A stretch of 64,000 nt of DNA from Acholeplasmataceae bacterium (GCA_963675245.1 OY775910.1:320001-384000), one strand, 5' to 3'. Shown: positions 19,485 to 41,777, counted from the first letter of the stretch. A program made the numbers and translations. The notes: generated by a model from the sequence alone, not told the origin.

Positions 19485-20312
19485 TTAACCTAATGCAACA
19501 TCTAACATCATCATGATAATAAAACCTACCATGACACCTAATACGGCATAATGCGCACCATGTTTAGATTGTTTTTGTTGTGCCTCTGGAATAAGTTCTT
19601 CAACTACAACATAAATCATCGCACCAGCAGCAAACGCTAAAGCATATGGTAATAATGATTGTATTCTTGTGACTAATATCGCACCCAATACACCTGCGAT
19701 TGGTTCTACTAAACCAGAAGCTTGTCCGTAAACAAATGCTTTTGTTCTGCTCATACCTTCTTGTCTTAAAGGAATGGAGACTGCTGCACCTTCTGGAAAG
19801 TTTTGAATACCAATACCTAAAGCGAGACCAATAGCACCTAATGTAGCTGCTAAGACATTACCACCAGTATAGTAGTTAATTGCCCCAAATGCAACACCCA
19901 CAGCTAAACCTTCGGGGATATTATGAAGCGTAATCGCGAACACTAAAAGAATCGTTCTTTTTAAGCGTGTCGGAATCCCTTCTTTTTCATGTTCTGGTCC
20001 AAAGTGCATATGGGGAATCGTTTTATCTGCGATATATAGAAAAATACCACCTAATGCAAAACCAATCGCAACAACAATCCAGGCAATCGCACCTTGACTA
20101 TCTGCCATTTCTATGGCTGGTGAAAGTAATGACCAAAAAGAGGCTGCAATCATCACCCCAGATGCAAATCCTAACATTAAATTAAATACATTTCTATCGA
20201 TTGTTTTAAAGAAGAATACGAGTGATGCACCAAGTGCTGTTACACCCCATGTGAATGTTGTTGCCATTAATGCTTGTATCCAAGTAGGCTGTGCCATAAA
20301 CCACTCAAACAT
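19485..20312 (-). CDS. ZIP family (GufA/ZupT-like) metal transporter
   Basis: HNIPEG and QNFPEG motifs, FAAGAMIYV, ELIPE. Confidence 0.95.
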   Translation of the reverse strand: MFEWFMAQPTWIQALMATTFTWGVTALGASLVFFFKTIDRNVFNLMLGFASGVMIAASFWSLLSPAIEMADSQGAIAWIVVAIGFALGGIFLYIADKTIPHMHFGPEHEKEGIPTRLKRTILLVFAITLHNIPEGLAVGVAFGAINYYTGGNVLAATLGAIGLALGIGIQNFPEGAAVSIPLRQEGMSRTKAFVYGQASGLVEPIAGVLGAILVTRIQSLLPYALAFAAGAMIYVVVEELIPEAQQKQSKHGAHYAVLGVMVGFIIMMMLDVALG

Positions 20313-20330
20313 ATCATCAACTCCTTTATT

Positions 20331-20346
20331 TTAAGGCTTGCCTTAA
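20331..20346. promoter_or_regulatory. DtxR/MntR-type operator
   Basis: Perfect inverted repeat TTAAGGC-TT-GCCTTAA between the -10 element and the SD of the ZIP gene. Confidence 0.75.
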
Positions 20347-20356
20347 TTCTATATTA

Positions 20357-20385
20357 AGTATAGCATAATAAATAAAATGAGTCAA
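20357..20385 (-). promoter_or_regulatory. Promoter of the ZIP-mntR-mgtE-mgtE operon
   Basis: TTGACT-17-TATACT with an extended TG. Confidence 0.8.
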
Positions 20386-20407
20386 TAAAAAAGAGGCTTA
20401 CGCCTCT
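20386..20407 (-). terminator. Terminator of tldE (stop codon lies in the loop)
   Basis: AGAGGC-GTAA-GCCTCT followed by a U-run. Confidence 0.75.
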
Positions 20408-21708
20408 CCTGAAATGGCTAATGATTCTAAATAGACACTTGGTGATCCAATAGATGAAATACTGAATTTCAAATCATTGCCTAATCCTTTGACATGATTG
20501 AGCATGTCGAAGAAATTACCGGATGCGACGACCATCTTCACAGGATGATCAATTACACCATTTGAAATCTTGTACCCACTAGCTTGCATTGAGAACTCAC
20601 CTGATACAGCATTTGCACCCGCATGTAAACCACTAATATCCGTAATATAGATACCTTCTTCAATCGGCTTAATCAGTTCATCAAAACTTTGTTCGCCAGG
20701 TACTAAATATAAGTTGGTTGGATTAATGCCATTACCAAATCCATTACCGGTTGGTTCAACATTAAACATTTTAGCAGTTTTTAAATTGTGTAGGAACCCT
20801 TCAAACACACCATCTTTAAAGACATAACGTGTATGACATGCAACTCCTTCATCATCGAATGGCATTTGGAATGGTGCTTCCTTAGATAGTGGATCATCTA
20901 TAATAGATATATTTTTACCTAAAACTTGTTCTCCAACTTTATCTTTTAATTTCGTTAAATTTCTTAACGCAGACTGTCCATTAAATGTTGAACTAAACAT
21001 CCCTAACATCTGGCTAAATATTTTATTTGATAACACAGTTGGATAACGTTTCGTAGGTACTGACGTACCACCAACCTTCTTTTCTCCACTTGATACGACT
21101 TCATTAATGACTTCTTGTGCATCAAATGTTTCAAAGTCTTTACCGATATTGACATAAAACTCTGTTTTAATATCATCATCTTTCTCAAAGACACCACCTG
21201 CGAAGATATATGCATAATTCGCATTCCTTGATAAATTTAATCCTTTAGAGTTAACAATGGTTGTAGTATTGACGGATTCAACGTACCCAGTTTGTTGGAC
21301 TGTTTTTGCGAGCGGACTTTTTAAAATGCCAGCTTCAATTTCTTTTAGCATGTTGATTTTATCAGTGACTGGTACTTGACTAAAATCAAAATCACTTGGT
21401 TCAACTTCTGGATAGTTATCTGAACCTTCATAAATGATTGCTGGTTCAGAGACTGTTAATGCTTTCACATTTTCAATCAATTGTTCAATCATGTATTCTG
21501 CTGTTTCATCATTTGTATGTTCAAAAGAAACACTCGCTAATTTACCTTCATAAACACCACGAATTCTGATGCTTTCAACATCACTGATCGTGTGGTCTTC
21601 AAGTTTTTGTTGATATACTTTAAGCTGAAGTGACTTTTCTCTTGTAACAAATACTTCAATATCAGAAAGACCTTTACTTAATCCTAATTCGATCCATTTT
21701 TTATACAT
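20398..21708 (-). CDS. pmbA: TldE/PmbA family protein
   Basis: PFDDEG, GFLHN, TGN, GEFS, SGN, GSPS; no HExxxH. Confidence 0.92.
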   Translation of the reverse strand: MYKKWIELGLSKGLSDIEVFVTREKSLQLKVYQQKLEDHTISDVESIRIRGVYEGKLASVSFEHTNDETAEYMIEQLIENVKALTVSEPAIIYEGSDNYPEVEPSDFDFSQVPVTDKINMLKEIEAGILKSPLAKTVQQTGYVESVNTTTIVNSKGLNLSRNANYAYIFAGGVFEKDDDIKTEFYVNIGKDFETFDAQEVINEVVSSGEKKVGGTSVPTKRYPTVLSNKIFSQMLGMFSSTFNGQSALRNLTKLKDKVGEQVLGKNISIIDDPLSKEAPFQMPFDDEGVACHTRYVFKDGVFEGFLHNLKTAKMFNVEPTGNGFGNGINPTNLYLVPGEQSFDELIKPIEEGIYITDISGLHAGANAVSGEFSMQASGYKISNGVIDHPVKMVVASGNFFDMLNHVKGLGNDLKFSISSIGSPSVYLESLAISGEA

Positions 21709-23093
21709 TATTTTTGACCTCCTGATCCGCCAACAGTCATACCTGTAACACGAAGTGGTGGTTGTCCAACATCAACAGGAATACTTCCTGAAACTGATCC
21801 ACACATACCTTGGCCAAATGTTAAGTTATCAGCTACTCTATCAATCTTAAATAAGATATCTTTACCATGTCCAATGAGCATAGCACCTCTGACTGGTTTT
21901 GTAATTTTACCGTCTTCGATCATATAACCTTCTAAGACAGCAAAGTTAAACTCGCCTGTTGCTGGAGACACTTGTCCACCACCAAGTTTTTTAGCAAATA
22001 ATCCATGTTTTGTATCTTTAATAATATCTTCAAGTTTATCTTTACCAGGTGCAATATAGGTTGAGTTCATACGTGAGGTTGGAGAGAATTTATACGATTG
22101 TCTTCTTGCAGAACCAGTTGATGCCATTCCCATCATCATACCACGACGATAATCAACCAAATATCCCTTTAGTACGCCATTTTCGATGAGTAAGTTCTTT
22201 TGCGTTTTCTTACCTTCATCATCATAAGATAATCTTCCCCAAGCACCATCAACATCGCCATCATCATAGGCTGTTACGACATCAGATCCGACCTTCTCAC
22301 CAATCTTACCAACAAATGGTGATAAGCCTTTTGAAATGGCTGTTGCTTCTAATGGATGACCACATGCTTCATGGAAAATAACACCACCAAAACCGTTATT
22401 TAAAATAACTGGCATGACTTGTGGTTCAATTTCTTCAGCACTTAATAATGTGATAGCTGAAGTCGCTGCTTCTAATGCTAATGCCTTAAAATCAATCATA
22501 TCAAAAATTTCAAATCCAGCATAACGACCTGGTGCTTCATACCCATATTGCATTACACCATTTTCGCTCGCAACTGCTTGAACCACAATACGTGTATAAA
22601 CGCGCACGTCATCTTGATAAACACCTTTTGAATTAGCAATCAATACTGATTGTCTTTTTTCGATAGATTGTGCAATAGCCTGAACAATTCTTGGGTCTTG
22701 CGCTTTCATTAAATTAGATAATTCGACTAATTTTTCTGAACGTTCCGCATTTGAAACATCTTCAATTTGTTTTTCAACAGTTGTCACGTAAGGTTTCTTT
22801 TCACCAAGTGGTACACTCTTCTTTACATCACCAGAAAATGAAGCTCTTAAATTTTTTACAACATCTAAAATAGCTTCTTTGTTCACATGATTTGTGTAGC
22901 CATATACTTCATCAACACCTTGAATTAGACGGACACCTACTCCATGTACATTACCACTGCCAAGCTGTGATACATCACCATTAGTAACAAGCATTTGTTG
23001 AGTTAGTGTATCTTCTAAAAAGATTTCAACAAAGTCAGCACCCGTTGATAGACCTTCATCAATTAGTACTTGTAAATCTTTTTTCTCAATCAT
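21708..23093 (-). CDS. tldD: TldD metalloprotease
   Basis: HEACGHPLE, YDDEG, STGSARRQSY, RMNST, GMCGS, GQP; start set by SD spacing. Confidence 0.95.
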   Translation of the reverse strand: MIEKKDLQVLIDEGLSTGADFVEIFLEDTLTQQMLVTNGDVSQLGSGNVHGVGVRLIQGVDEVYGYTNHVNKEAILDVVKNLRASFSGDVKKSVPLGEKKPYVTTVEKQIEDVSNAERSEKLVELSNLMKAQDPRIVQAIAQSIEKRQSVLIANSKGVYQDDVRVYTRIVVQAVASENGVMQYGYEAPGRYAGFEIFDMIDFKALALEAATSAITLLSAEEIEPQVMPVILNNGFGGVIFHEACGHPLEATAISKGLSPFVGKIGEKVGSDVVTAYDDGDVDGAWGRLSYDDEGKKTQKNLLIENGVLKGYLVDYRRGMMMGMASTGSARRQSYKFSPTSRMNSTYIAPGKDKLEDIIKDTKHGLFAKKLGGGQVSPATGEFNFAVLEGYMIEDGKITKPVRGAMLIGHGKDILFKIDRVADNLTFGQGMCGSVSGSIPVDVGQPPLRVTGMTVGGSGGQK

Positions 23094-23097
23094 AATT

Positions 23098-24888
23098 TTA
23101 TCCTTTCGTCGTTTTTTCATCATATTGCAATTCGTAAAGATTACGATATAATCCTTTTTGTCTTAATAACTCTTGATGATTTCCAGATTCTTTGATTTCA
23201 CCTTTTTGCATCACGATAATACGATCCGCATGCTGAATAGTTGATAATCTGTGGGCAACAATTAACATCGTTGATATGTTCATCATTTTTTCTAAAGATT
23301 CTTGAATCAACTCTTCTGTTTCACTATCAATATTTGCGGTTGCTTCATCCAAGATCATCAATGATGGTTTATAAACAAGCGCTCTAGCAAAACTGATGAG
23401 TTGTCGTTGTCCACTCGAGAAGTTATTACCACGCTCACGTACGATATGATCATAACCATCAGGTAATGTGTCAATAAATGTATTTGCACCAACATACTCG
23501 CTAGCAGACTTAACTTCTTCCATGGTGATCTCATTATCACTTAATGTGATATTATCTTTAATCGTGCCAGAGAATAAGAAGACATCTTGAAGCATTTGTC
23601 CTATCTTATCTCTTAATGAAGAACGTTTAATTCGTTTGATATCCATGCCATCAATTAATATTTGACCTTTTTGAATCTCATAGTTTCTAACAATTAAACT
23701 TAAAATGGTTGTCTTTCCTGAACCGGTTGCACCAACAAACGCTACCGTTTCACCTGGATTCACTTTAAAACTAACACCTTTTAATACCCATTCATCAGGA
23801 ATATACTGGAACCATACATCTTTAAATTCAATTTCACCAGAAAATGATTCGAGTTCAATCGCGTCTTCATCATCAACAATCGATGGTTTTGTGTCTAAAA
23901 CATCAAATACCTTTTCTGCACTAGCAAATGCATTTTGAAGCATATTGAACTGTTCTGCAATTTGTTGAATTGGTTCAAAGAAGTTACCAACATATTGATA
24001 GAATGAATAAAGCAATCCTGTTGATAAAACACCTATTAAAACTTCTTGGAAACCAAAATAAAGTGTGAGTACACTTCCAATCATCGCGATCATAAAAATT
24101 GTTGGTCGATAAATACCGAAAACGAGAATTTCACGTAAATAGCTCTTCTTTAGATGTTCACTTCGTTCTTTAAACTCACGACGCTTTTTATCTTCTTGAT
24201 TGAAAATCTGAGTTACTTTCATACCTGATAAATTTTCAGATAAGAACGCATTGACTTCAGAAACGTTTTGACGAACTAAACGATAACTTGATCTCGAGAA
24301 TTTTCTAAACAATACACTAGCAATTAATACAAGTGGCACTGTGATTAATACGATTAATGCCATTTTCCAATTCAAAGCAAATAAGATGAAGACAATAGCA
24401 ACTAAGTAAATTAAGTTTCTTACGAGATTAACACCGATGTTCGTATACATTTCAGATATCGCATTCGTATCGTTTGTGACACGAGTAACTAGTTTTCCAA
24501 CAGGGACTTGATTAATCTGTTCAATCGCTAGACTTTCAATGTGTTTAAACACATCATCTCTTAGTTCCATGACAGTTTTTTGCCCAACTTTTTGAAGTAG
24601 AATTTCTTGGAAATACGCGACAACATTTGCTAAACCTAAGACGACAACGAAGCTCGCACTAACAAGAACAACTCTTAAAATCTTACCTTCTCTATCCAAA
24701 ACATCACTCGTAACTGTATCAATAATAAATCCAACCATTAACGGTGGCAATAATTGAACTGCTAAAGCAATAAACATCAATATTACAATAACAACAAATT
24801 GTTTCTTATAGGGTTTCATGTACGAAAGGAGTCTTTTTAGAACTTCTTTGTCACTTCTTTCCCGAGTGTTATCTTTGAAGTCTTTCAC
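23098..24888 (-). CDS. Heterodimeric ABC exporter subunit with canonical Walker B (BmrD/TM288-like)
   Basis: TMD+NBD, GATGSGKT, FSSGQRQ, LDEATAN. Confidence 0.93.
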   Translation of the reverse strand: MKDFKDNTRERSDKEVLKRLLSYMKPYKKQFVVIVILMFIALAVQLLPPLMVGFIIDTVTSDVLDREGKILRVVLVSASFVVVLGLANVVAYFQEILLQKVGQKTVMELRDDVFKHIESLAIEQINQVPVGKLVTRVTNDTNAISEMYTNIGVNLVRNLIYLVAIVFILFALNWKMALIVLITVPLVLIASVLFRKFSRSSYRLVRQNVSEVNAFLSENLSGMKVTQIFNQEDKKRREFKERSEHLKKSYLREILVFGIYRPTIFMIAMIGSVLTLYFGFQEVLIGVLSTGLLYSFYQYVGNFFEPIQQIAEQFNMLQNAFASAEKVFDVLDTKPSIVDDEDAIELESFSGEIEFKDVWFQYIPDEWVLKGVSFKVNPGETVAFVGATGSGKTTILSLIVRNYEIQKGQILIDGMDIKRIKRSSLRDKIGQMLQDVFLFSGTIKDNITLSDNEITMEEVKSASEYVGANTFIDTLPDGYDHIVRERGNNFSSGQRQLISFARALVYKPSLMILDEATANIDSETEELIQESLEKMMNISTMLIVAHRLSTIQHADRIIVMQKGEIKESGNHQELLRQKGLYRNLYELQYDEKTTKG

Positions 24889-26645
24889 GCGACATCACCT
24901 CCTGAAACCAATTTTTCAAGACGTTGACGTCTAACCATATCACGATATAACTCTGATGATTTCATCAATTCATCGTGACTACCTACTGCAGATAACTTAC
25001 CATGATCTAACAAGATAATCTTATCCATTTTTTTAACAGTTGAAATACGATGAGCGATAAATATCGTCGTTTTACCTTGACGAATTTTATGAAGATTATT
25101 AATAATGGCATCTTCTGTTTTAGTATCAACTGCTGATACAGAATCATCTAAAATCAAAACTTCTGGATCTTTAGCTAAAGCACGTGCAATAGATATACGT
25201 TGTTTTTGACCACCGGATACCGTTACACCACGTTCACCTAATATCGTTTCAAATCCTTCTTTGAAATCCATCACATTATCATAAATATCCGAAAGCTTAG
25301 CTGCATGATGGACGAGTTCTTCATCAATTGATTCATGCGCAAAGCCAATATTTTCAGTAATTGATGTAGAAAATAAGAAATTATCTTGAGGGACATAACC
25401 AACTGTTTCACGCACTTGTTTAAGGGGTAAGTCCATGATGTCATGACCATCGATAAATATCATTCCTTTTTCTATATTATAGATCCTTAAAAGTAAATCC
25501 ACGAGTGATGATTTACCAGAACCAGTACGTCCTAATACACCGACCATTTCACCTGCTTTAATACTAAATGAAATGTTTTCTAATACATCTGCATCACCAT
25601 CAGGGTATTTAAACGAAAGTCCTTTGGCTTCAATCGAACCTTTCAGTTCATCAACTTCTACAACATCGTTGTGATCAGCAATATCTATTTCATAATCTAA
25701 GAACTTGGAAATACGTTCTGCACTAGCTTTTGCTTGTGAATTAATCTGAACGAATCTCGATAATGCCATCGTTGGCCACATCAGTGTAAAGAAATATGCG
25801 ATATATTCAGTAAGTTGACCACCAGTAAATCCGGTTTGTGCAAAGTTAATTACTCTCAAACTACCGATGATCACAATCACTAAAATAACGATATTTAATG
25901 CAATAGATAATGCAATATTAATACCGACCATATATTTAACGAATCCGATGTGTTTGTTATATAAATTTTCGTTTTTATCTCTAAATGCAAAAAATTCTTT
26001 TACTTCTCTTACAAATGCTTTAATCACCGTGATACCGGAGAAGTTTTCTTGTGTGAAATCAGATAATTCTTCAAACGCTTGTTGTCTTGCTTTAAAACGT
26101 TTTGACATCGCTTTTCTAATCAATACCATTGCGAATGTCAATAAAGCCATTGGGATAGCTGCAAATATCGTCATTCGCCAATCTAATGAAAACATACGAT
26201 ATAAGGCAAATCCACCCAAGGTTAGACCATCGACTAACATTAAAATACCCGGACCATAAGACATCCTGAGTGCTTCTAAATCATTAATAAAGAACGTCAT
26301 CATACCCCCGACTTTTTGTTCCTTATAATAATTTTGAGATAATTTAGTCGCGTGTTCAAACATGACGTTTCTTAACTGAAATTCAATGCGTCTAGAAGCA
26401 CCAAAAATTGTATATCGCCATATAAATCTTCCTACTGTAATAATAACTGCAATAATGGCTATACGTGTGATAGCTTCAATAATATTTGCCTGAACTTGAC
26501 TTCCATCTAACTCATCGATAATTCCCCCGACAAGTCTTGGAATTTCTAATTGGATCCAGTCTATTGCGACTAAAACTGCAATACCAACGAGAAAGTAAGG
26601 TAAGAATTTTATATAATACTTACCAAAATGTTTACTAAATAGCAT
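24885..26645 (-). CDS. Heterodimeric ABC exporter subunit with degenerate Walker B (BmrC/TM287-like)
   Basis: GRTGSGKS, VSGGQKQR, LDDSVSAVD. Confidence 0.93.
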   Translation of the reverse strand: MLFSKHFGKYYIKFLPYFLVGIAVLVAIDWIQLEIPRLVGGIIDELDGSQVQANIIEAITRIAIIAVIITVGRFIWRYTIFGASRRIEFQLRNVMFEHATKLSQNYYKEQKVGGMMTFFINDLEALRMSYGPGILMLVDGLTLGGFALYRMFSLDWRMTIFAAIPMALLTFAMVLIRKAMSKRFKARQQAFEELSDFTQENFSGITVIKAFVREVKEFFAFRDKNENLYNKHIGFVKYMVGINIALSIALNIVILVIVIIGSLRVINFAQTGFTGGQLTEYIAYFFTLMWPTMALSRFVQINSQAKASAERISKFLDYEIDIADHNDVVEVDELKGSIEAKGLSFKYPDGDADVLENISFSIKAGEMVGVLGRTGSGKSSLVDLLLRIYNIEKGMIFIDGHDIMDLPLKQVRETVGYVPQDNFLFSTSITENIGFAHESIDEELVHHAAKLSDIYDNVMDFKEGFETILGERGVTVSGGQKQRISIARALAKDPEVLILDDSVSAVDTKTEDAIINNLHKIRQGKTTIFIAHRISTVKKMDKIILLDHGKLSAVGSHDELMKSSELYRDMVRRQRLEKLVSGGDVA

Positions 26646-26707
26646 AAAAAATACCCTCAAGTCTATAAAATACTCATAACTATTATAATTGATTTTTAAT
26701 CATAATT

Positions 26708-26742
26708 AAAAATAAAAACGTTTTTAACACGTTTTTATTTTT
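26708..26742 (-). terminator. Terminator after the SHOCT/DUF2089 operon
   Basis: 14-bp inverted repeat AAAAATAAAAACGT...ACGTTTTTATTTTT. Confidence 0.65.
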
Positions 26743-26748
26743 TGTTGA

Positions 26749-27129
26749 TTACTCAACAACGATTTTAACTGTATCGCCATCGCCAGATTCAACGTTGACG
26801 ATTTCGCCTTCCATACCTTGTGTAACCATTTCGATGATCGAGTCTACATCGACATCAACATCACCGAAATTCGCTTGGAACTTTTTGTTTTTAAGTAGCT
26901 TAGCGAATTCAACTGGGATTTTAACATTAACTTTATCGCCATCAGATGAGTTGATTAAGATTTTTAATAACTTAAATGGTCCTTTATTTCTTTGAACTAC
27001 AGTTGCATTTACTGTTTCATGTGATTCTAAAGCAGACAGTAAATCTTCTGCTTCCTTTGCATTTATCGTACCACTTGATAACATTTCAAGTATTTTTAAA
27101 CGTTCTTCTTTTAATTGATCTTTTGACAT
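26749..27129 (-). CDS. SHOCT-like domain protein (YvlB/LiaX N-terminus-like) with a C-terminal beta-rich domain
   Basis: EERLKILEMLSSGTINAKEAEDLLSAL; GGAGG SD. Confidence 0.85.
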   Translation of the reverse strand: MSKDQLKEERLKILEMLSSGTINAKEAEDLLSALESHETVNATVVQRNKGPFKLLKILINSSDGDKVNVKIPVEFAKLLKNKKFQANFGDVDVDVDSIIEMVTQGMEGEIVNVESGDGDTVKIVVE

Positions 27130-27155
27130 AATTTATTTCCTCCGAATTTTTTTTA

Positions 27156-27284
27156 TTATTCCATTTCTTCTTTATGTTCTAATGCTGCCAATAATTCATC
27201 CGCTTCCTTTGCGTCTAACGCACCTGTAGAAAGCATATTAAATATATGTACACAGCAACTTGTATTTTGTTTATTGAATGCCAT
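27156..27284 (-). CDS. 42-aa stand-alone SHOCT-like microprotein (absent from the ORF track)
   Basis: MAFNKQNTSCCVHIFNMLSTGALDAKEADELLAALEHKEEME; GGAGGAA SD; clear similarity to the N-terminus of the downstream gene. Confidence 0.85.
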   Translation of the reverse strand: MAFNKQNTSCCVHIFNMLSTGALDAKEADELLAALEHKEEME

Positions 27285-27306
27285 CGTATTTTCCTCCATT
27301 CAATGT

Positions 27307-27423
27307 TTAATTTTTTGATTCGTAACGATCAAATAATTTCAATGCAAATGCAACTAAGTTATAAGGTTGGTTTAGGCTCTGTCCTAAAATCGTCTGTTTG
27401 ACCTTTTGGTTGTTTTTTCTCAT
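27307..27423 (-). CDS. 38-aa hypothetical microprotein (absent from the ORF track)
   Basis: MRKNNQKVKQTILGQSLNQPYNLVAFALKLFDRYESKN; AAGGAGGA SD directly after the DUF2089 stop; fills the operon gap. Confidence 0.75.
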   Translation of the reverse strand: MRKNNQKVKQTILGQSLNQPYNLVAFALKLFDRYESKN

Positions 27424-27436
27424 AAAAACATCCTCC

Positions 27437-27841
27437 TTATTTCTTCAGCAACTTCATTGCCTCCTCAAAGCTGATTTCCTTTTTGCTGAGTTTATTTAAA
27501 ACATCATTTCGAGATGATTTATTCTTTTCTTCCTGGCGCTCTTCTTCTGCTTCAAGCGCTTCATCCACTGTATAGCCAAGTCCTTCGACTGCTTCATCCA
27601 ACATTTTTTTAACTGTAGGATAACTGATGTTTAATTCTTTTTCGACAGCTTTAATATTGCCACGGTTCTTAACGAACACTTCGATAAAGTATAATTTTTC
27701 AGTATCTAAATAGTTAAACTTTGAAAGTGAAAATGATCCGTCTATCGTTGTACCACAGTGATCACATTCTAATTTTACTGCATGTAAATCATGTTTGCAT
27801 ACTGGACAAGATGTTAATATTGGGTATGTTCCTTTTTTCAT
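27437..27841 (-). CDS. DUF2089-like protein (Zn ribbon + HTH + SHOCT-like tail)
   Basis: CPVC...CDHC, RGNIKAVEKELNISYPTVK, C-terminal VLNKLSKKEISFEEAMKLL. Confidence 0.88.
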   Translation of the reverse strand: MKKGTYPILTSCPVCKHDLHAVKLECDHCGTTIDGSFSLSKFNYLDTEKLYFIEVFVKNRGNIKAVEKELNISYPTVKKMLDEAVEGLGYTVDEALEAEEERQEEKNKSSRNDVLNKLSKKEISFEEAMKLLKK

Positions 27842-27853
27842 AATTATTCTCCT

Positions 27854-28207
27854 TTAAATTGTTTTGATGTAAATCTTTGCTTCATTTTTAGCATCTACTT
27901 CAACTTTTATACCTCTAACCATAAACTCACTAAATAATTGTCTATAAGTTACTGGAAATGATTCACTCACGATCTCATCCATTTTTTTCCTTATGAACAT
28001 TTTTGCAATGCCAATTGGAATTGGACAAGCGAGTAGGAATGCTAGAAAGACTGATAATCCTGGACTTTCATTAATTCTAATGCGCACTTTTATGAAATGT
28101 GCTTTTTTAAGTTTGTAGTGTTTTTCGTGACCATAGAGTTCCCGATAGGCCTTTTTCGGTGAAACATCTTTTGATTCACATTTAGTTAAGACTTCATAAT
28201 TTTCCAC
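27854..28207 (-). CDS. Hypothetical protein, divergent paralogue of 26749-27129 with a hydrophobic insert
   Basis: GTG start with GGAG SD; degenerate SHOCT-like N-terminus; FIKVRI...PIPIGIAK...VEVD...KIYIK. Confidence 0.75.
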   Translation of the reverse strand: MENYEVLTKCESKDVSPKKAYRELYGHEKHYKLKKAHFIKVRIRINESPGLSVFLAFLLACPIPIGIAKMFIRKKMDEIVSESFPVTYRQLFSEFMVRGIKVEVDAKNEAKIYIKTI

Positions 28208-28247
28208 TTTTCTTCTCCAAAACTTAATTTTTTTGATTTACACCTTG

Positions 28248-28276
28248 ATTATATTAATTAATTTTCATTTTGTCAA
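28248..28276 (-). promoter_or_regulatory. Promoter of the SHOCT/DUF2089 operon
   Basis: Exact TTGACA-17-TATAAT. Confidence 0.85.
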
Positions 28277-28374
28277 GCATTTTATTCACTTTTTATTAAA
28301 AAAATTAATTTCGACCTTAATAATCTTAATATTTTGGCTTAAATGCGTTATAATAATTAAGAACAGAAAGGAGA

Positions 28375-29592
28375 ATGATTATGCATTCACTCATTGAACG
28401 TTTCTTGCGTTATGTTAAAATTGATACACAATCAGATCAAGATTCACCCTCTTGTCCTTCAACAGAAAAACAAAAAAATCTTTCAAATCTACTTGTGAAA
28501 GAATTGAAAGAAATGGGACTAGATGCTTTTTTAGATAAGGATGGTTACGCGTACGCGTTAATTAAAGGAAATAAAACATCTGCTCCTGCTATAGGATTAG
28601 TTGCTCATGTAGACACATCACCCGACGCACCTGGCAAGGATGTTAATCCACGTATTATTAAAAACTATGATGGGTCATTAATTAAACTTAATGAAACCTA
28701 TCAAATGGATCCTGAAGGTTTTCCAAGTTTATCAAGAGTTATTGGTCAAGATATTATTGTGACTGATGGTTCAACTCTTTTAGGTGCTGATGATAAATGT
28801 GGGGTTGCTGAAATTATGGAAGTTGCCAAATATTTCACTGAAAACCCAGATGAACCTCATGGTGATATTTATATTTGCTTTACACCTGATGAAGAAATTG
28901 GTCGTGGTGCTGATCGTTTTGATCACAATTTCTTTAAAGCAGACTTTGCCTATACAGCAGATGGTTCTGAAGTGGGTGGTTTAGAATTTGAAAACTTTAA
29001 TGCTGCTTGGGTTTATTTAGATTTCACTGGTAAATCTATTCACCCTGGTTCTGCAAAAAATAAAATGATTAATGCGACACATGTCGCTATGGCATTTCAC
29101 GCGATGCTTCCTGAAAGAATGACACCAGAAAATACAGAAGGCTACGAAGGATTTAATCATTTACATAAATTAACAGGTGAAGTTGAATTTGCTCATAGTG
29201 CTTATTTAATTAGAAACCATGATATGAAGAAATTTAATCAACAAAAAGAAGACTTCAATCGTATCGCTAATTATCTCAATGATAAATATGGTTATCCTGT
29301 TGTGAAAATAGAGATTAAAGATAGTTACTACAACATGTATGAAATCATCAAAGATAATATGGCACCTGTTGATCTTGCAAAACAAGCCATCATGAATGTT
29401 GGGTTAACACCTACAATCGAACCCATTAGAGGCGGTACAGATGGTGCTAGACTCACATATGATGGTTTAATCTGTCCAAACATTGGTACAGGTGGTTATC
29501 AATTTCATGGACGTTTTGAATTCGCTTCTATTAATCAGATGCATCAAGCGGTTGATGTATTCATTGAAATTATTAAACTAGCAGCTAAATAA
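28375..29592 (+). CDS. pepT: Peptidase T
   Basis: RFLRYVKIDTQS, AHVDT, LLGADDK, TPDEEIG, RGGTDG. Confidence 0.96.
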   Translation: MIMHSLIERFLRYVKIDTQSDQDSPSCPSTEKQKNLSNLLVKELKEMGLDAFLDKDGYAYALIKGNKTSAPAIGLVAHVDTSPDAPGKDVNPRIIKNYDGSLIKLNETYQMDPEGFPSLSRVIGQDIIVTDGSTLLGADDKCGVAEIMEVAKYFTENPDEPHGDIYICFTPDEEIGRGADRFDHNFFKADFAYTADGSEVGGLEFENFNAAWVYLDFTGKSIHPGSAKNKMINATHVAMAFHAMLPERMTPENTEGYEGFNHLHKLTGEVEFAHSAYLIRNHDMKKFNQQKEDFNRIANYLNDKYGYPVVKIEIKDSYYNMYEIIKDNMAPVDLAKQAIMNVGLTPTIEPIRGGTDGARLTYDGLICPNIGTGGYQFHGRFEFASINQMHQAVDVFIEIIKLAAK

Positions 29593-39152: not shown

Positions 39153-41777
39153 TTAGCGAGGATTTTTGATGTTTGCGTGAGCCGCAGCAAGTCTCGCAAT
39201 TGGTACTCTAAATGGTGAACATGAGACATATGTTAAACCGATATTGTGACAGAATTCAACTGATTCTGGGTCACCACCGTGTTCACCACAAATACCAAGT
39301 TTAATATTTGGTCTTGTTTCTTTACCTAACTTAGATGCCATCTTCATGAGTTTACCAACACCTGCTTGGTCAACATGTGCAAATGGATCATTGACGAAGA
39401 TTTTCTTTTCATAATAATCGCTTAAGAATTTACCAGCATCATCACGACTGAATCCAAATGTCATTTGTGTTAAATCGTTTGTACCAAAGCTGAAGAATTC
39501 AGCTTCTTTTGCAATTTCATCAGCGAGTAATGCAGCTCTTGGAATTTCAATCATTGTACCAACATGATATTCTAATGAAATGCCTGATTCTTTAATAATC
39601 GCATCTGCCACTTTAACAACGACATCTTTGACGAATTTAAGTTCTCTGACTTCACCAACAAGAGGAATCATGATTTCAGGTACAACTTTTAAGCCTTCTT
39701 TAGTAACAGCGATGGCTGCTTCAATCACGGCACGTGTTTGCATTTCTGCAATTTCAGGATAAGTGATGCTTAAGCGAACACCACGGTGTCCTAACATTGG
39801 ATTACTTTCATGTAATTCAATAATCGTATTTGTAAGTTCACTGACAGGGATTCCCATATCAACAGCTAAATGTTGGATATCTTTAGGATCAGTTGGCAGG
39901 AATTCATGTAGTGGTGGGTCTAAGTAACGAATGGTAACAGGGAAGCCTCTCATTGCCTTATAAAGACCAATAAAGTCTTCTCTTTGCATAGGTAGAATCT
40001 TCTCTAAAGCTTTTTTACGTTCGTCTTTATTCTTAGCAGCAATCATTTCTCTTACTGCAGAAATTCTGCCTTCTTCAAAGAACATATGTTCTGTACGGCA
40101 TAAACCAATACCATGTGCACCAAAGTCATAAGCTACTTTTGCATCATGTGGGTTATCAGCATTTGCTCTAACATCTAATGAACGATATTTATCAGCCCAA
40201 GCCATTAATGTTTCAAAATCACCAGAAACAGTTGCATCCATAGTTTCAACTTTTTGGCCATAAACCTTACCAGTTGAGCCATCTAATGAAATCCAGTCGC
40301 CTTCTTTAAAAGATTCGCCACCGACTTCAAATACTTTTTCTTCTTCATTAACATGGACTTGACCAGCACCAGCAACACAGCATGTACCCATACCACGCGC
40401 AACGACTGCTGCGTGTGATGTCATACCACCACGAGCTGTTAAAATACCAGAAGCAACTGCCATACCTTCTATATCTTCAGGTGATGTTTCTTCACGAACT
40501 AAGATAACAGGTAAGCCATCAGCTTCATGTAATTCTTTCGCACGATCAGCAGTGAAGACGACACGTCCAGTAGCAGCACCAGGAGATGCATTAAGACCTG
40601 TTGTAATGACTCTAGCTGATTTTAATGCTTTTGGTTCGAACTGTGGATGTAAAAGAGAATCCAATTGTTTTGGCTCTACTTTTAATACAGCTTCTTTTTC
40701 TGATAAAACGCCTTCTTTTACAAGATCAATCGCGATCTTTAAAGCAGCTTGTGCTGTACGTTTACCATTTCTTGTTTGTAACATGAAAAGTTTTCCACGT
40801 TCAATCGTGAATTCCATATCTTGCATGTCACGATAATGTTCTTCTAGTTTTTCAGCAACTTTAACGAAATCTTTGTAAAGTTGTGGATTATCTTTTTGTA
40901 ATTCTGCAATTGGTTTAGGTGTACGAATACCTGCAACAACATCTTCACCTTGTGCATTAAATAAGTATTCACCATATAATACTTTTTCGCCAGTAGATGG
41001 GTTACGTGTAAAGGCAACACCTGTACCAGAATCATCACCCATATTGCCGAAGACCATACTTTGTACGTTTACTGCTGTACCCCATTCATATGGAATACCT
41101 TGTAAACGACGATATGTATTCGCACGTGGGTTGTCCCATGAACGGAATACAGCTGTAATCGCTTCAATTAATTGCACACGTGGATCTTGTGGGAATGGTT
41201 CTCCTTTAAGTTCTAAATACTTTTCTTTGTATTCTGCAACTAATCTTCCCATATCGTCTGCGTCTAATTCTGTATCTTGTTCAACGCCTTTTGCTTGTTT
41301 CATGTTGTGTAAGAGTTTTTCATAATTATCTTTTGAAATTCCCATAACAACATCAGAAAACATTTGAATAAAACGACGATAAGAGTCATAAGCGAAACGT
41401 GGATTATTCGTGAGTTTTGCTAACCCTAAAACAGCTTCGTCATTCAAGCCTAAGTTTAAGATGGTATCCATCATACCTGGCATTGATGCACGTGCACCAG
41501 AGCGAACAGATACTAAGAATGGATCCGCAGGATCACCAAACGTTTTGCCAACCACCTTTTCAGTGACTTTTAACGCTTCATTAATTTGTTTAATGATGTC
41601 CTCTGAAATGACTTTACCTTTATCGTAGTAGTCATTACATGCTTCTGTTGTTACTGTGAAACCTTGTGGTACTGGTAAACCAAGCGATGTCATTTCAGCT
41701 AAGTTTGCACCTTTACCACCGAGAAGATTCCGCATACTTGCGTCGCCTTCTTTAAACAAGTAAACATACTTTTTCAT
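39153..41777 (-). CDS. ppdK: Pyruvate, phosphate dikinase
   Basis: LLGGKGANLAEM, SMPGMMDT, GGMTSHAAVVARG, GTNDL, CGEHGGDP; true start is MKKYVY at 41777. Confidence 0.98.
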   Translation of the reverse strand: MKKYVYLFKEGDASMRNLLGGKGANLAEMTSLGLPVPQGFTVTTEACNDYYDKGKVISEDIIKQINEALKVTEKVVGKTFGDPADPFLVSVRSGARASMPGMMDTILNLGLNDEAVLGLAKLTNNPRFAYDSYRRFIQMFSDVVMGISKDNYEKLLHNMKQAKGVEQDTELDADDMGRLVAEYKEKYLELKGEPFPQDPRVQLIEAITAVFRSWDNPRANTYRRLQGIPYEWGTAVNVQSMVFGNMGDDSGTGVAFTRNPSTGEKVLYGEYLFNAQGEDVVAGIRTPKPIAELQKDNPQLYKDFVKVAEKLEEHYRDMQDMEFTIERGKLFMLQTRNGKRTAQAALKIAIDLVKEGVLSEKEAVLKVEPKQLDSLLHPQFEPKALKSARVITTGLNASPGAATGRVVFTADRAKELHEADGLPVILVREETSPEDIEGMAVASGILTARGGMTSHAAVVARGMGTCCVAGAGQVHVNEEEKVFEVGGESFKEGDWISLDGSTGKVYGQKVETMDATVSGDFETLMAWADKYRSLDVRANADNPHDAKVAYDFGAHGIGLCRTEHMFFEEGRISAVREMIAAKNKDERKKALEKILPMQREDFIGLYKAMRGFPVTIRYLDPPLHEFLPTDPKDIQHLAVDMGIPVSELTNTIIELHESNPMLGHRGVRLSITYPEIAEMQTRAVIEAAIAVTKEGLKVVPEIMIPLVGEVRELKFVKDVVVKVADAIIKESGISLEYHVGTMIEIPRAALLADEIAKEAEFFSFGTNDLTQMTFGFSRDDAGKFLSDYYEKKIFVNDPFAHVDQAGVGKLMKMASKLGKETRPNIKLGICGEHGGDPESVEFCHNIGLTYVSCSPFRVPIARLAAAHANIKNPR

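Follow-up and report, generated by a model that had tools for sequence, protein, structure and literature searches.

We describe a minus-strand operon in a 64,000-nucleotide (nt) stretch of DNA from an Acholeplasmataceae bacterium (GCA_963675245.1, OY775910.1:320001-384000; hereafter the window, in which positions count from the first letter). Three of its five open reading frames (ORFs), O1, O2 and O5, belong to a real, conserved and uncharacterised bacterial regulatory module. O2 is a DUF2089 regulator with a helix-turn-helix (HTH), and O1 and O5 are paralogs, the first basic with a hydrophobic insertion and the second acidic and soluble. The operon probably switches its own promoter according to the state of the membrane. 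In its specific form, our proposal is an autoregulated DUF2089 switch under the control of the soluble acidic adaptor O5 and its membrane-embedded basic paralog O1, and we give that form slightly less than an even chance.

The five ORFs are O1 (27854-28207; 117 amino acids (aa), GTG start), O2 (27437-27841; 134 aa), O3 (27307-27423; 38 aa), O4 (27156-27299; 47 aa, or 42 aa from a second ATG at 27284) and O5 (26749-27129; 126 aa). They are 12-26 nt apart, and a Shine-Dalgarno (SD) sequence, GGAG/AAGGAGG, can be read 7-9 nt 5' of every start. The SD position in O4 suits the 42-aa start, and the GTG start of O1 agrees with the N-termini of its relatives (alignment A3). A sigma-70-type promoter at 28276-28248 precedes O1, with TTGACA (-35) at 28276-28271, a 17-nt spacer and TATAAT (-10) at 28253-28248. 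It matches the consensus at 12 of 12 positions and was the sole perfect site among 13 promoter-like matches in a scan of the region, a total that is no excess over shuffled sequence (10.9 +/- 3.4).

After the O5 stop codon, an AU-rich hairpin with a U-tract (26708-26742, minus strand) is a candidate intrinsic terminator. It has 14-17 base pairs (bp), its arms lie at 26708-26724 and 26726-26742 (inverted repeat I1, 17-nt arms, 94% complementary), and a 100-nt fold at this place gives z = -4.55. A terminator scan of the region called none because it demands at least three G-C pairs. Among 18 relatives with a downstream ATP-binding cassette (ABC) gene, most have a hairpin at the matching place; none was found after the O5-type gene of L051 (loci carry L numbers), where the gap to the ABC gene is 21 nt. 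An Rfam scan of 26400-28600 gave no matches, and the conserved 5' untranslated region (UTR) therefore corresponds to no known RNA family. ORFs, SD sequences, promoter and terminator had all been described in an earlier note on this DNA, and accurately, with the terminator standing as a candidate.

A conserved module around a DUF2089 regulator

O2 (27437-27841, minus strand) begins with a Zn ribbon and an HTH, continues with an acidic linker and ends in a probable SHOCT-like hairpin of basic charge. Pfam places the Zn ribbon (PF22747, 53 bits against a cutoff of 27.6) and the HTH, which is GerE-like (PF09862, 79.6 bits against 33.4, with the full model 1-47 covered), well above their cutoffs. 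The ribbon cysteines C12, C15, C26 and C29 are invariant in 36 sequences (alignment A1). The C-terminal hairpin reaches 20 bits with PF22746 (E 5e-4), under the cutoff of 27, and residues 118-133 match a hidden Markov model (HMM) of the O5 hairpin at E 2e-5. These matches uphold the earlier view of a regulatory module centred on a Zn-ribbon/HTH DUF2089 protein. O2 has 543 homologs, and database homologs of O2 and O5 are as close as 80-88% identity. Other searches added little: a profile search of PDB sequences with A1 and with the O5 alignment A2 returned nothing below E 0.2, an NCBIfam scan of the operon proteins gave no meaningful match, and the ESM Atlas gave just the proteins' own hypothetical clusters or PF22746 clusters, with scores below 0.9.

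To sample related loci, species-representative genomes were scanned with the DUF2089 alignment; at least 506 loci were confirmed and 80 were kept, from Acholeplasmataceae, Izemoplasmatales, Clostridium, Lachnospiraceae, Peptostreptococcaceae, Paenibacillus and Bacillus. The taxa fit the expected spread over Acholeplasmatales and Clostridia. By family HMMs, an O5-type gene, encoding a hairpin followed by a C-terminal domain that we call X, lies 3' of the DUF2089 gene at 78 of 80 loci, the exceptions being L030, on a 1.7-kb contig, and L073. An O1-type gene lies 5' at 54 of the 80. Seven Clostridium-type loci have a hairpin-less X-domain third gene downstream, and hairpin-less X-domain versions of 94-114 aa can be recognized by eye in Bacillus and Paenibacillus loci. 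Five ORFs are present in the window, as the earlier note had it; synteny identifies a conserved core of three genes, of the O1, O2 and O5 types.

O1 (27854-28207) has a predicted N-terminal helical hairpin, a basic linker and a basic counterpart of the O5 C-terminal domain that contains a hydrophobic segment at about residues 50-68. O5 (26749-27129) has an acidic SHOCT-like hairpin (residues 8-37) and an acidic, unnamed domain of about 75 residues, X, with the order beta-beta-alpha...alpha-beta-beta. The C-terminal pattern and the hydrophobic insert proposed from the bare sequence both hold: hhalign aligns the O1 family (A3, n=57) with the O5 family (A2, n=56) over 102 columns at 97.2% probability (E 4e-11), with an 8-residue insertion on the O1 side. 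This alignment indicates that O1 and O5 are paralogs. O1 has 88 representative homologs and O5 has 285. Residues that never vary in A2 are L, P and G, in A3 a single P, and none of them looks catalytic.

The AlphaFold2 (AF2) model of O1 has a mean predicted local distance difference test score (pLDDT) of 91.3 and a predicted template modelling score of 0.63; in order, it shows the hairpin, a strand, a hydrophobic helix (49-58), two further helices and two strands. The O5 model averages 63.2, with the hairpin near 90 and the domain near 58. Foldseek found no PDB match at E<=1e-3 for either model, a result that means little for O5, because its model is of low confidence. No Pfam model matched the C-terminal part of either family.

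The earlier note had linked these proteins to the YvlB/LiaX type, and here our results depart from it. Pfam finds no Toastrack (DUF4097/DUF2154/DUF2807) in O1, O5 or the 57 O1 relatives, and a single O5 relative of 56 has a weak DUF4097 match (E 0.0076). Because Toastrack is undetectable, by Pfam, across the families or by PDB folds, sequences and models place O1 and O5 outside the YvlB/LiaX-type proteins. A distant kinship of the two DGD beta-hairpins to Toastrack repeats is speculation.

The note had also proposed a SHOCT-like hairpin in four products. The searches confirm DUF2089 in O2 and the SHOCT-like hairpin in O5, where PF22746 matches residues 8-37 at 35 bits against the cutoff of 27 and recurs in 56 of 56 family members. 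For O4 and O2 the claim stands on sub-threshold Pfam matches together with the O5-hairpin HMM, which was built from O5-family hairpins without the window row. O4 reaches 22.1 bits with PF22746 (E 1e-4) and matches the HMM at E 1e-9. As a control, we searched 3,597 small six-frame ORFs (25-70 aa) from the 80 loci. Only three match at E<1e-3, all of them within the gap between the DUF2089 and O5-type genes, so small AT-rich ORFs rarely carry the motif by chance. Neither O1 nor O3 matches PF22746 or the HMM (O3 E 0.95). The O1 hairpin is indicated indirectly: the hhalign alignment to the O5 family extends over it, the AF2 model (pLDDT 91) puts helices at residues 3-11 and 17-25, and 5 of 57 O1-family members touch PF22746 at E<=0.1. 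The classical SHOCT model (Pfam PF09851) is absent among Pfam matches at E<=1 for all five proteins.

Transcript c18487_g1_i1, from a transcriptome assembly of the eukaryote Anaeramoba ignava, encodes two related proteins, P0005 and P0123, which are an O5 homolog (p2, 86% identity) and an O2 homolog (p1, 88%). It suggests an Acholeplasmataceae-like bacterium in the culture, and it hints at co-transcription of O2 and O5.

A hydrophobic paralog and opposite charges

A 19-residue Kyte-Doolittle window with a threshold of 1.6 separates the three families. The threshold is reached by 53 of 57 members of the O1 family, by none of 56 in the O5 family and by none of 36 DUF2089 proteins; O1 of the window peaks at 2.19 over residues 50-68. 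O1 is therefore predicted by this criterion to be the membrane-embedded partner. Because strands on both sides of the insertion form one domain and both flanks are basic, we infer that the insertion would be monotopic and cytoplasm-facing, rather than a membrane pass.

A second line of evidence comes from fusions. VanZ is a resistance-associated membrane protein. A VanZ domain (PF04892) lies N-terminal to the O1 module in all three relatives tested (P0272, P0282 and P0291; 264-271 aa), and O1-type genes of 263-289 aa occur at 10 loci. O1 of the window has no VanZ match in Pfam. The hydrophobic segment and the fusions agree with the membrane link suggested by the earlier note.

The charges of the same domains are opposed. 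In the O5 family both the hairpin (mean net charge -3.0) and the domain are negative in 56 of 56 members, and the O4 hairpin is acidic as well. All 57 O1 domains are positive (mean +6.0), and net positive hairpins are found in 78% of the 36 O2-type proteins and in 70% of the O1 family. These signs favour pairing of the acidic O5 with basic protein partners and speak against binding of lipid or nucleic acid by its hairpin.

A phased box array at the promoter

Upstream regions of the related loci share a second feature, a phased array of ATTAA(G/T) boxes. In the window it spans 28215-28335 on the minus strand, with three boxes upstream of the -35, one or two overlapping the -10 and two in the 5' UTR, and it is a candidate DUF2089 operator. 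The interval 28251-28380, which holds most of the array, is the densest AATTAA/TTAATT cluster in the 64 kb (6 per 130 nt; the runner-up has 4). ATTAA-N4-ATTAA occurs at 28317-28330 and ATTAA-N7-ATTAA at 28305-28321. The former pattern is found 9 times in the window against 1.4 expected; matches at 41581 and 42155 were set aside, as they lie within coding sequence. Repeats in the intergenic region of the window alone are many, low in complexity and AT-rich, with no clear operator among them, and the array emerged from comparison across species.

The 79 upstream regions contain 173 copies of AATTAA, where dinucleotide shuffles give 64.1 +/- 8.3 and, in 100 rounds, never more than 84; for ATTAAG the count is 54 and the shuffles give 11.8 +/- 3.1. 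From one box to the next, the spacing peaks at 9 (47 cases), 12 (39), 21 (24) and 30 (11), which yields a 21-bp period. ATTAA-N4/N7-ATTAA is present in 39 of 78 operon upstream windows, searched on one strand, and in 26 of 454 other AT-rich windows (AT >= 0.72, from the same loci), searched on both; such array counts are lower bounds because some gene starts are mis-set, and are inflated because the promoters are phylogenetically related. By group, the pattern is found at 27 of 44 loci with a short O1-type gene (Acholeplasmataceae-type) and at 12 of 24 without O1 (Clostridium, Paenibacillus and Bacillus).

The promoter itself is conserved along with the boxes. When one base of the -35 and two of the -10 are allowed to vary (TTGAC[AT], 16-18 nt, TA[TA][AT]AT), it is present in 27 of the 79 upstream regions, that of the window included. 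Across 15 aligned promoters (A5), TTGACA never varies, and the -10 is fixed at five of its six positions. Mean column identity in A5 is 71%, and the matching DUF2089 proteins are just 56-66% identical to that of the window. The consensus 3' of the -10 is AAnGTGTAAATTAAAAAAATTAAG. The array suggests autoregulation by DUF2089, which is the economical reading because no other DNA-binding protein accompanies it.

A candidate membrane-responsive switch

These elements can be assembled into a mechanism. O2 would be the DNA-binding output, O5 a soluble acidic protein of hairpin plus X, and O1 its basic paralog with a hydrophobic insertion that probably reaches into the membrane from the cytoplasmic face. 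O2 would bind the phased ATTAA boxes, whose 9- and 12-bp spacings alternate to give the 21-bp period and which flank or overlap its own promoter, and would thereby control the operon. O5 would modulate O2, most plausibly by contact of its acidic hairpin with the basic hairpin of O2. O1 would act as the reporter of membrane condition, or of a membrane-active compound: its X domain would hold O5, or let it go, by way of the paralogous X domain of O5, which has the opposite charge. For the wall-less Acholeplasmataceae, cell-wall damage drops out as a signal, which leaves the membrane or transported compounds. Neighbouring exporter genes are a likely further output, and O4, as a recent partial duplicate of the O5 hairpin, could serve as a decoy. 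A prediction of the full-length O2:O5 complex (from A1 and A2) scored 0.01 against a mark of 0.32, a result that counts neither way on binding.

Several observations weigh against this proposal. The O1 hairpin is missed by both Pfam and the O5-hairpin HMM, and the model of the O5 domain is of low confidence. The box array is found at 0 of the 10 VanZ-O1 loci and, at the strict pattern, is wanting in about half of all loci; shared ancestry also keeps the promoters from counting as independent. The O1 homolog of Acholeplasma laidlawii 8195 (L039:3130-3465) has an in-frame TAA at codon 7 (MKQFKT*NKVY...), so O1 can be dispensable. At 24 of 66 loci tested, the next same-strand gene does not encode a transporter (11 TRAM/tRNA U5-methyltransferases, 2 serine dehydratases and 11 mixed). 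In the window, as in several relatives, the ABC gene is set apart from O5 by a hairpin and a separate -10-like box, and no ATTAA array was seen in front of it, so the argument for exporter control is adjacency. The sole experimental test of a classical SHOCT domain that we found (PMC3581485) did not support oligomerisation. Finally, domain content, O1/O5 paralogy, synteny, the pattern of charge and hydrophobicity, the conserved boxes and the origin of O4 stand as observations, whereas which proteins bind each other, where O2 binds DNA, what the signal is and what the system drives are parts of the scheme that we infer.

The A. laidlawii gene deserves a further remark. The rest of its reading frame is intact and the conserved boxes of the 5' UTR are kept upstream. 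It is probably either a recent pseudogene or a gene whose translation restarts downstream.

A broader formulation is also conceivable, and we think it unlikely in its entirety. Here the operon would exemplify a hitherto undescribed form of membrane-to-DNA signalling without a kinase or sigma factor. The monotopic O1 and its soluble, oppositely charged paralog O5, with one unnamed fold in common, would set how O2 assembles via two-helix hairpins on the 21-bp-phased ATTAA array, so that exporter expression would follow membrane or drug stress in Bacillota both with and without a wall. Decoy mini-hairpins would be born repeatedly, as partial duplicates of the facing hairpin-coding gene ends.

Small ORFs between O2 and O5

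Two of the five ORFs fall outside the conserved core. O3 (27307-27423) is a 38-aa ORF of unproven gene status with the strong SD AAGGAGG. It has no match in Pfam or NCBIfam, no relative at E<1e-3 among the ORFs of the 80 loci and no similarity to the remaining genes of the operon. O4 (27156-27284 in its 42-aa form) encodes a stand-alone acidic SHOCT-like hairpin. It is 54% identical to O5 residues 11-38 over 28 aa (E 2e-8), the two also align as DNA (A4), and it has no match to O2. These alignments indicate that O4 arose, in this lineage, by partial tandem duplication of the O5 5' end. A homolog search of 5.8 billion proteins, at lengths of 25-83 aa, returned O4 itself as the sole match.

Perhaps, then, only the three core genes function, with O3 a chance ORF and O4 a decaying duplication scar, easily made where the hairpin-coding 3' end of O2 and 5' end of O5 lie near each other. 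We regard this as a strong contender, if somewhat less probable than its opposite. The missing relatives of both ORFs speak for it, as does the gap between the DUF2089 and O5-type genes, which is at most 30 nt at 52 of 78 loci (it exceeds 100 nt at 21, and the window resembles these). So does L041, where a 42-aa gap ORF independently duplicates the C-terminal hairpin of DUF2089. Against it stand the SDs of O3 and O4, which are strong and well spaced, and the open frame of O4, whose ratio of nonsynonymous to synonymous substitution (dN/dS) relative to O5 is about 0.49, weak evidence from 28 codons only. Stand-alone hairpin ORFs also recur in the gap elsewhere, at L002, L008 and L009 by HMM and at L004 and L011 by eye.

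At L002 (3922-4107), L008 (3927-4100 and 4112-4285) and L009 (3933-4106), the gap ORFs encode 57-61 aa and apparently two tandem hairpins. Three of these four match the hairpin HMM at E<1e-3, and the second ORF of L008 was recognized by eye only. Those of L004 and L011 encode single hairpins of 42-44 aa. The L041 ORF (3862-3990) lies just 3' of a 118-aa DUF2089 gene and copies its C-terminal hairpin (...GLGYKV...KLEKGELSASEAAKLLK). From its sequence it is an independent partial duplication, the mirror image of O4 in the window, which copies the other flank. Mini-hairpins therefore appear to arise repeatedly from either flank, a recurrence that fits unequal recombination between the facing hairpin-coding gene ends.

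Other small ORFs occupy the same gap. In Bacilli and Acholeplasmatales metagenome-assembled genomes (MAGs), L050 (3873-4163), L062 (3882-4223) and L078 (1445-1777) carry an extra gene whose product, of 96-113 aa, has a SHOCT-like hairpin and a long charged helical tail. A conserved Tyr-rich basic ORF of 35 aa (M.MYN.YYY...EQ...) is found in the related MAGs of L040 (3861-3968), L047 (3861-3968) and L055 (3858-3965). L001 and L003 share a different gap ORF of 43-45 aa, and L063 and L071 share a similar one of 35-37 aa. The gap seems to collect lineage-specific small ORFs, O3 of the window likewise.

Hairpin pairing or membrane anchoring

The earlier note had treated SHOCT oligomerisation as established. 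In the literature it is not, and the competing SHOCT-SHOCT contacts that the note envisaged are conjectural. Eberhardt et al. (2013; PMC3581485) hypothesised oligomerisation and reported an experiment of their own that did not support it. Ravi et al. (2024, mSystems; PMC11237479) predict instead that SHOCT-like domains anchor disparate domains at the inner leaflet.

The hairpins might accordingly bind the membrane and not each other, with O2 docking on the inner leaflet, or leaving it, by way of its basic hairpin, and with O1 and O5 acting as sub-membrane scaffolds that make no contact with O2. The mostly basic hairpins of O2 and O1 agree with such anchoring, as do the prediction by Ravi et al. 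(PMC11237479) and the negative oligomerisation result for the classical SHOCT domain (PMC3581485). It is opposed by O5, whose hairpin is uniformly negative and, like the acidic O4, ill suited to anionic lipid, and which has no hydrophobic segment in any of its 56 family members. We consider anchoring improbable, and keep to the proposal that acidic and basic hairpins pair.

Neighbouring genes and exporters

Downstream of the operon, on the same strand, are two adjacent ABC half-transporter genes (23098-26660). They lie at 24885-26660 and 23098-24888, encode 591 and 596 aa, and both have the Pfam domains ABC_membrane and ABC_tran. These half-transporters are a possible output of the system. Among the 66 loci tested, the next same-strand gene encodes an ABC exporter half-transporter at 18, a major facilitator superfamily (MFS) protein at 22 and a DrrA-like ABC ATPase at 2, so that ABC or MFS exporter components adjoin at 42. 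The MFS genes checked begin 0-24 nt past the O5-type gene.

Adjacent exporters are also what one would expect if O1 and O5 were themselves regulated effectors, membrane-protective or exporter-assisting and loosely LiaX/PspA-like, with O2 sensing on its own, for example through its Zn ribbon. Three genes behind one promoter under a likely operator are in keeping with this arrangement, and the VanZ fusions place the O1 module on a membrane protein family. The regulator and both partners nevertheless carry the same rare hairpin, with complementary charges, which direct contact explains more easily, and neither O1 nor O5 has a conserved residue of catalytic appearance. Effector roles of this kind seem to us doubtful, about as much so as anchoring. 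Least credible, and very improbable, is the idea of a toxin-antitoxin system or anti-phage cassette in which the HTH protein is the antitoxin: the genes are small, the regulator has an HTH and an older report (2009) notes DUF2089 fused to Fic domains, but PADLOC gives just a 17.7-bit partial LmuB match on O2 and none on the others, Pfam and NCBIfam find no toxin-like domain, and the stable synteny with housekeeping neighbours, at about 60% protein identity across a family of genomes, is unlike that of mobile cassettes.

The gap after O5 has features of its own. In the window (26661-26748) and in the corresponding gaps of L001-L024, a TATAAT-like box, often TnTATAAT and with no clear -35, precedes the ABC gene in about 8 of 19 sequences. 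With the hairpin that comes before the box, such gaps point to a terminator/promoter junction common to several species.

Eight flanking genes were classified with Pfam: an ABC transporter, two TldD/PmbA genes, a ZIP transporter, an M20 peptidase, an ArsP-type permease and two genes without a family. The TldD/PmbA pair (471 and 436 aa) and the ZIP transporter lie on the same strand, 3' of the ABC genes (19485-24888), and the M20 peptidase gene is divergent and upstream of the operon. Among these eight and the first ABC gene (about 19.5-32.5 kb) we found no PspA/LiaH, LiaF/LiaI, PspC or LiaSR gene. Elsewhere, at the Clostridium loci L044 (2459-3208) and L045 (2563-3312), a same-strand gene upstream of the DUF2089 operon encodes a 249-aa bactofilin-domain protein.

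Significance

DUF2089 regulators are widespread, as the at least 506 loci attest, and occur beside exporters and in bacteriocin and antibiotic clusters. For this group the present analysis supplies a candidate operator, a minimal system of three parts, a predicted membrane component and charge rules for pairing, all directly testable. The system is also a natural test of the role of SHOCT-like hairpins, a question since 2013. It is a variant of a kind of system already predicted computationally, and its value lies in the cheap, concrete experiments that it allows.

Comparison with known systems

In the literature searched, so far as the sources were accessible, we found no functional study of any DUF2089 protein. 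A 2009 paper describes DUF2089 as an HTH resembling response-regulator effector domains, and papers on bacteriocins, mollemycin and Bacteroides have it, in the portions seen, as table rows alone.

The closest precedent is in Ravi et al. (PMC11237479), who divide DUF2089 into Zn-ribbon (ZnR), HTH and SHOCT-like parts. Their Table S4 already puts on record a DUF2089 -> SHOCT-like+X pair, from Bacillus megaterium (BMQ_3692; ADE70705.1). Like O2 and O5, it pairs a regulator of ZnR, DUF2089-HTH and SHOCT-like parts with a following SHOCT-like protein that has an unassigned domain. Unlike here, in the part of the source consulted the pair is a single table row, X is undefined and no analysis accompanies it. 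The same paper describes a context of sigma factor, anti-sigma zf-HC2 receptor, membrane-anchored Toastrack and DUF2089, for which it proposes a lia-like role from membrane to transcription. In both settings the genes beside that of the DUF2089 regulator encode membrane-proximal partners that bear hairpins; the window differs in that the genes scanned include no Toastrack, sigma/anti-sigma, LiaI-LiaF-TM or PspC gene.

One locus of our sample falls between the two. In Clostridiaceae bacterium M8S5 (L073:3876-5553), DUF2089 is followed by a 441-aa protein of SHOCT-like plus Toastrack (DUF4097) and then by a 123-aa SHOCT-like protein, which the X-domain HMM does not match at E<1e-3. This locus links the small-domain system to the Toastrack context of Ravi et al.

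DUF2089 genes beside ABC exporter genes, as in the window, are also reported for leaderless-bacteriocin clusters (BawC, 98 aa; EntDD14 ORF C, 89 aa) and for mollemycin Mom1/Mom3, and the mollemycin cluster encodes a DUF1707 (SHOCT-like) protein as well. Those DUF2089 proteins are shorter or actinobacterial, and the portions of the reports consulted describe no O1- or O5-type partner. YvlB of B. subtilis and LiaX of Enterococcus share the N-terminal hairpin family PF22746 with O5, one relative of which is labelled 'YvlB/LiaX N-terminal domain'. They end in a Toastrack beta-helix, whereas O1 and O5 differ in having the beta-beta-alpha...alpha-beta-beta domain.

In anti-sigma/sigma and LiaF-LiaS systems, likewise, a membrane component governs a soluble transcription factor via a small adaptor. 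The operon differs from these in having no kinase, phosphatase, STAS or sigma domain, and the shared module is a two-helix hairpin. Beyond the known systems, the present analysis makes X a conserved domain with a membrane-type paralog, O1, and adds the opposite charges, the VanZ fusions, the conserved ATTAA array, the adjacent exporters and the extra small ORFs of the window.

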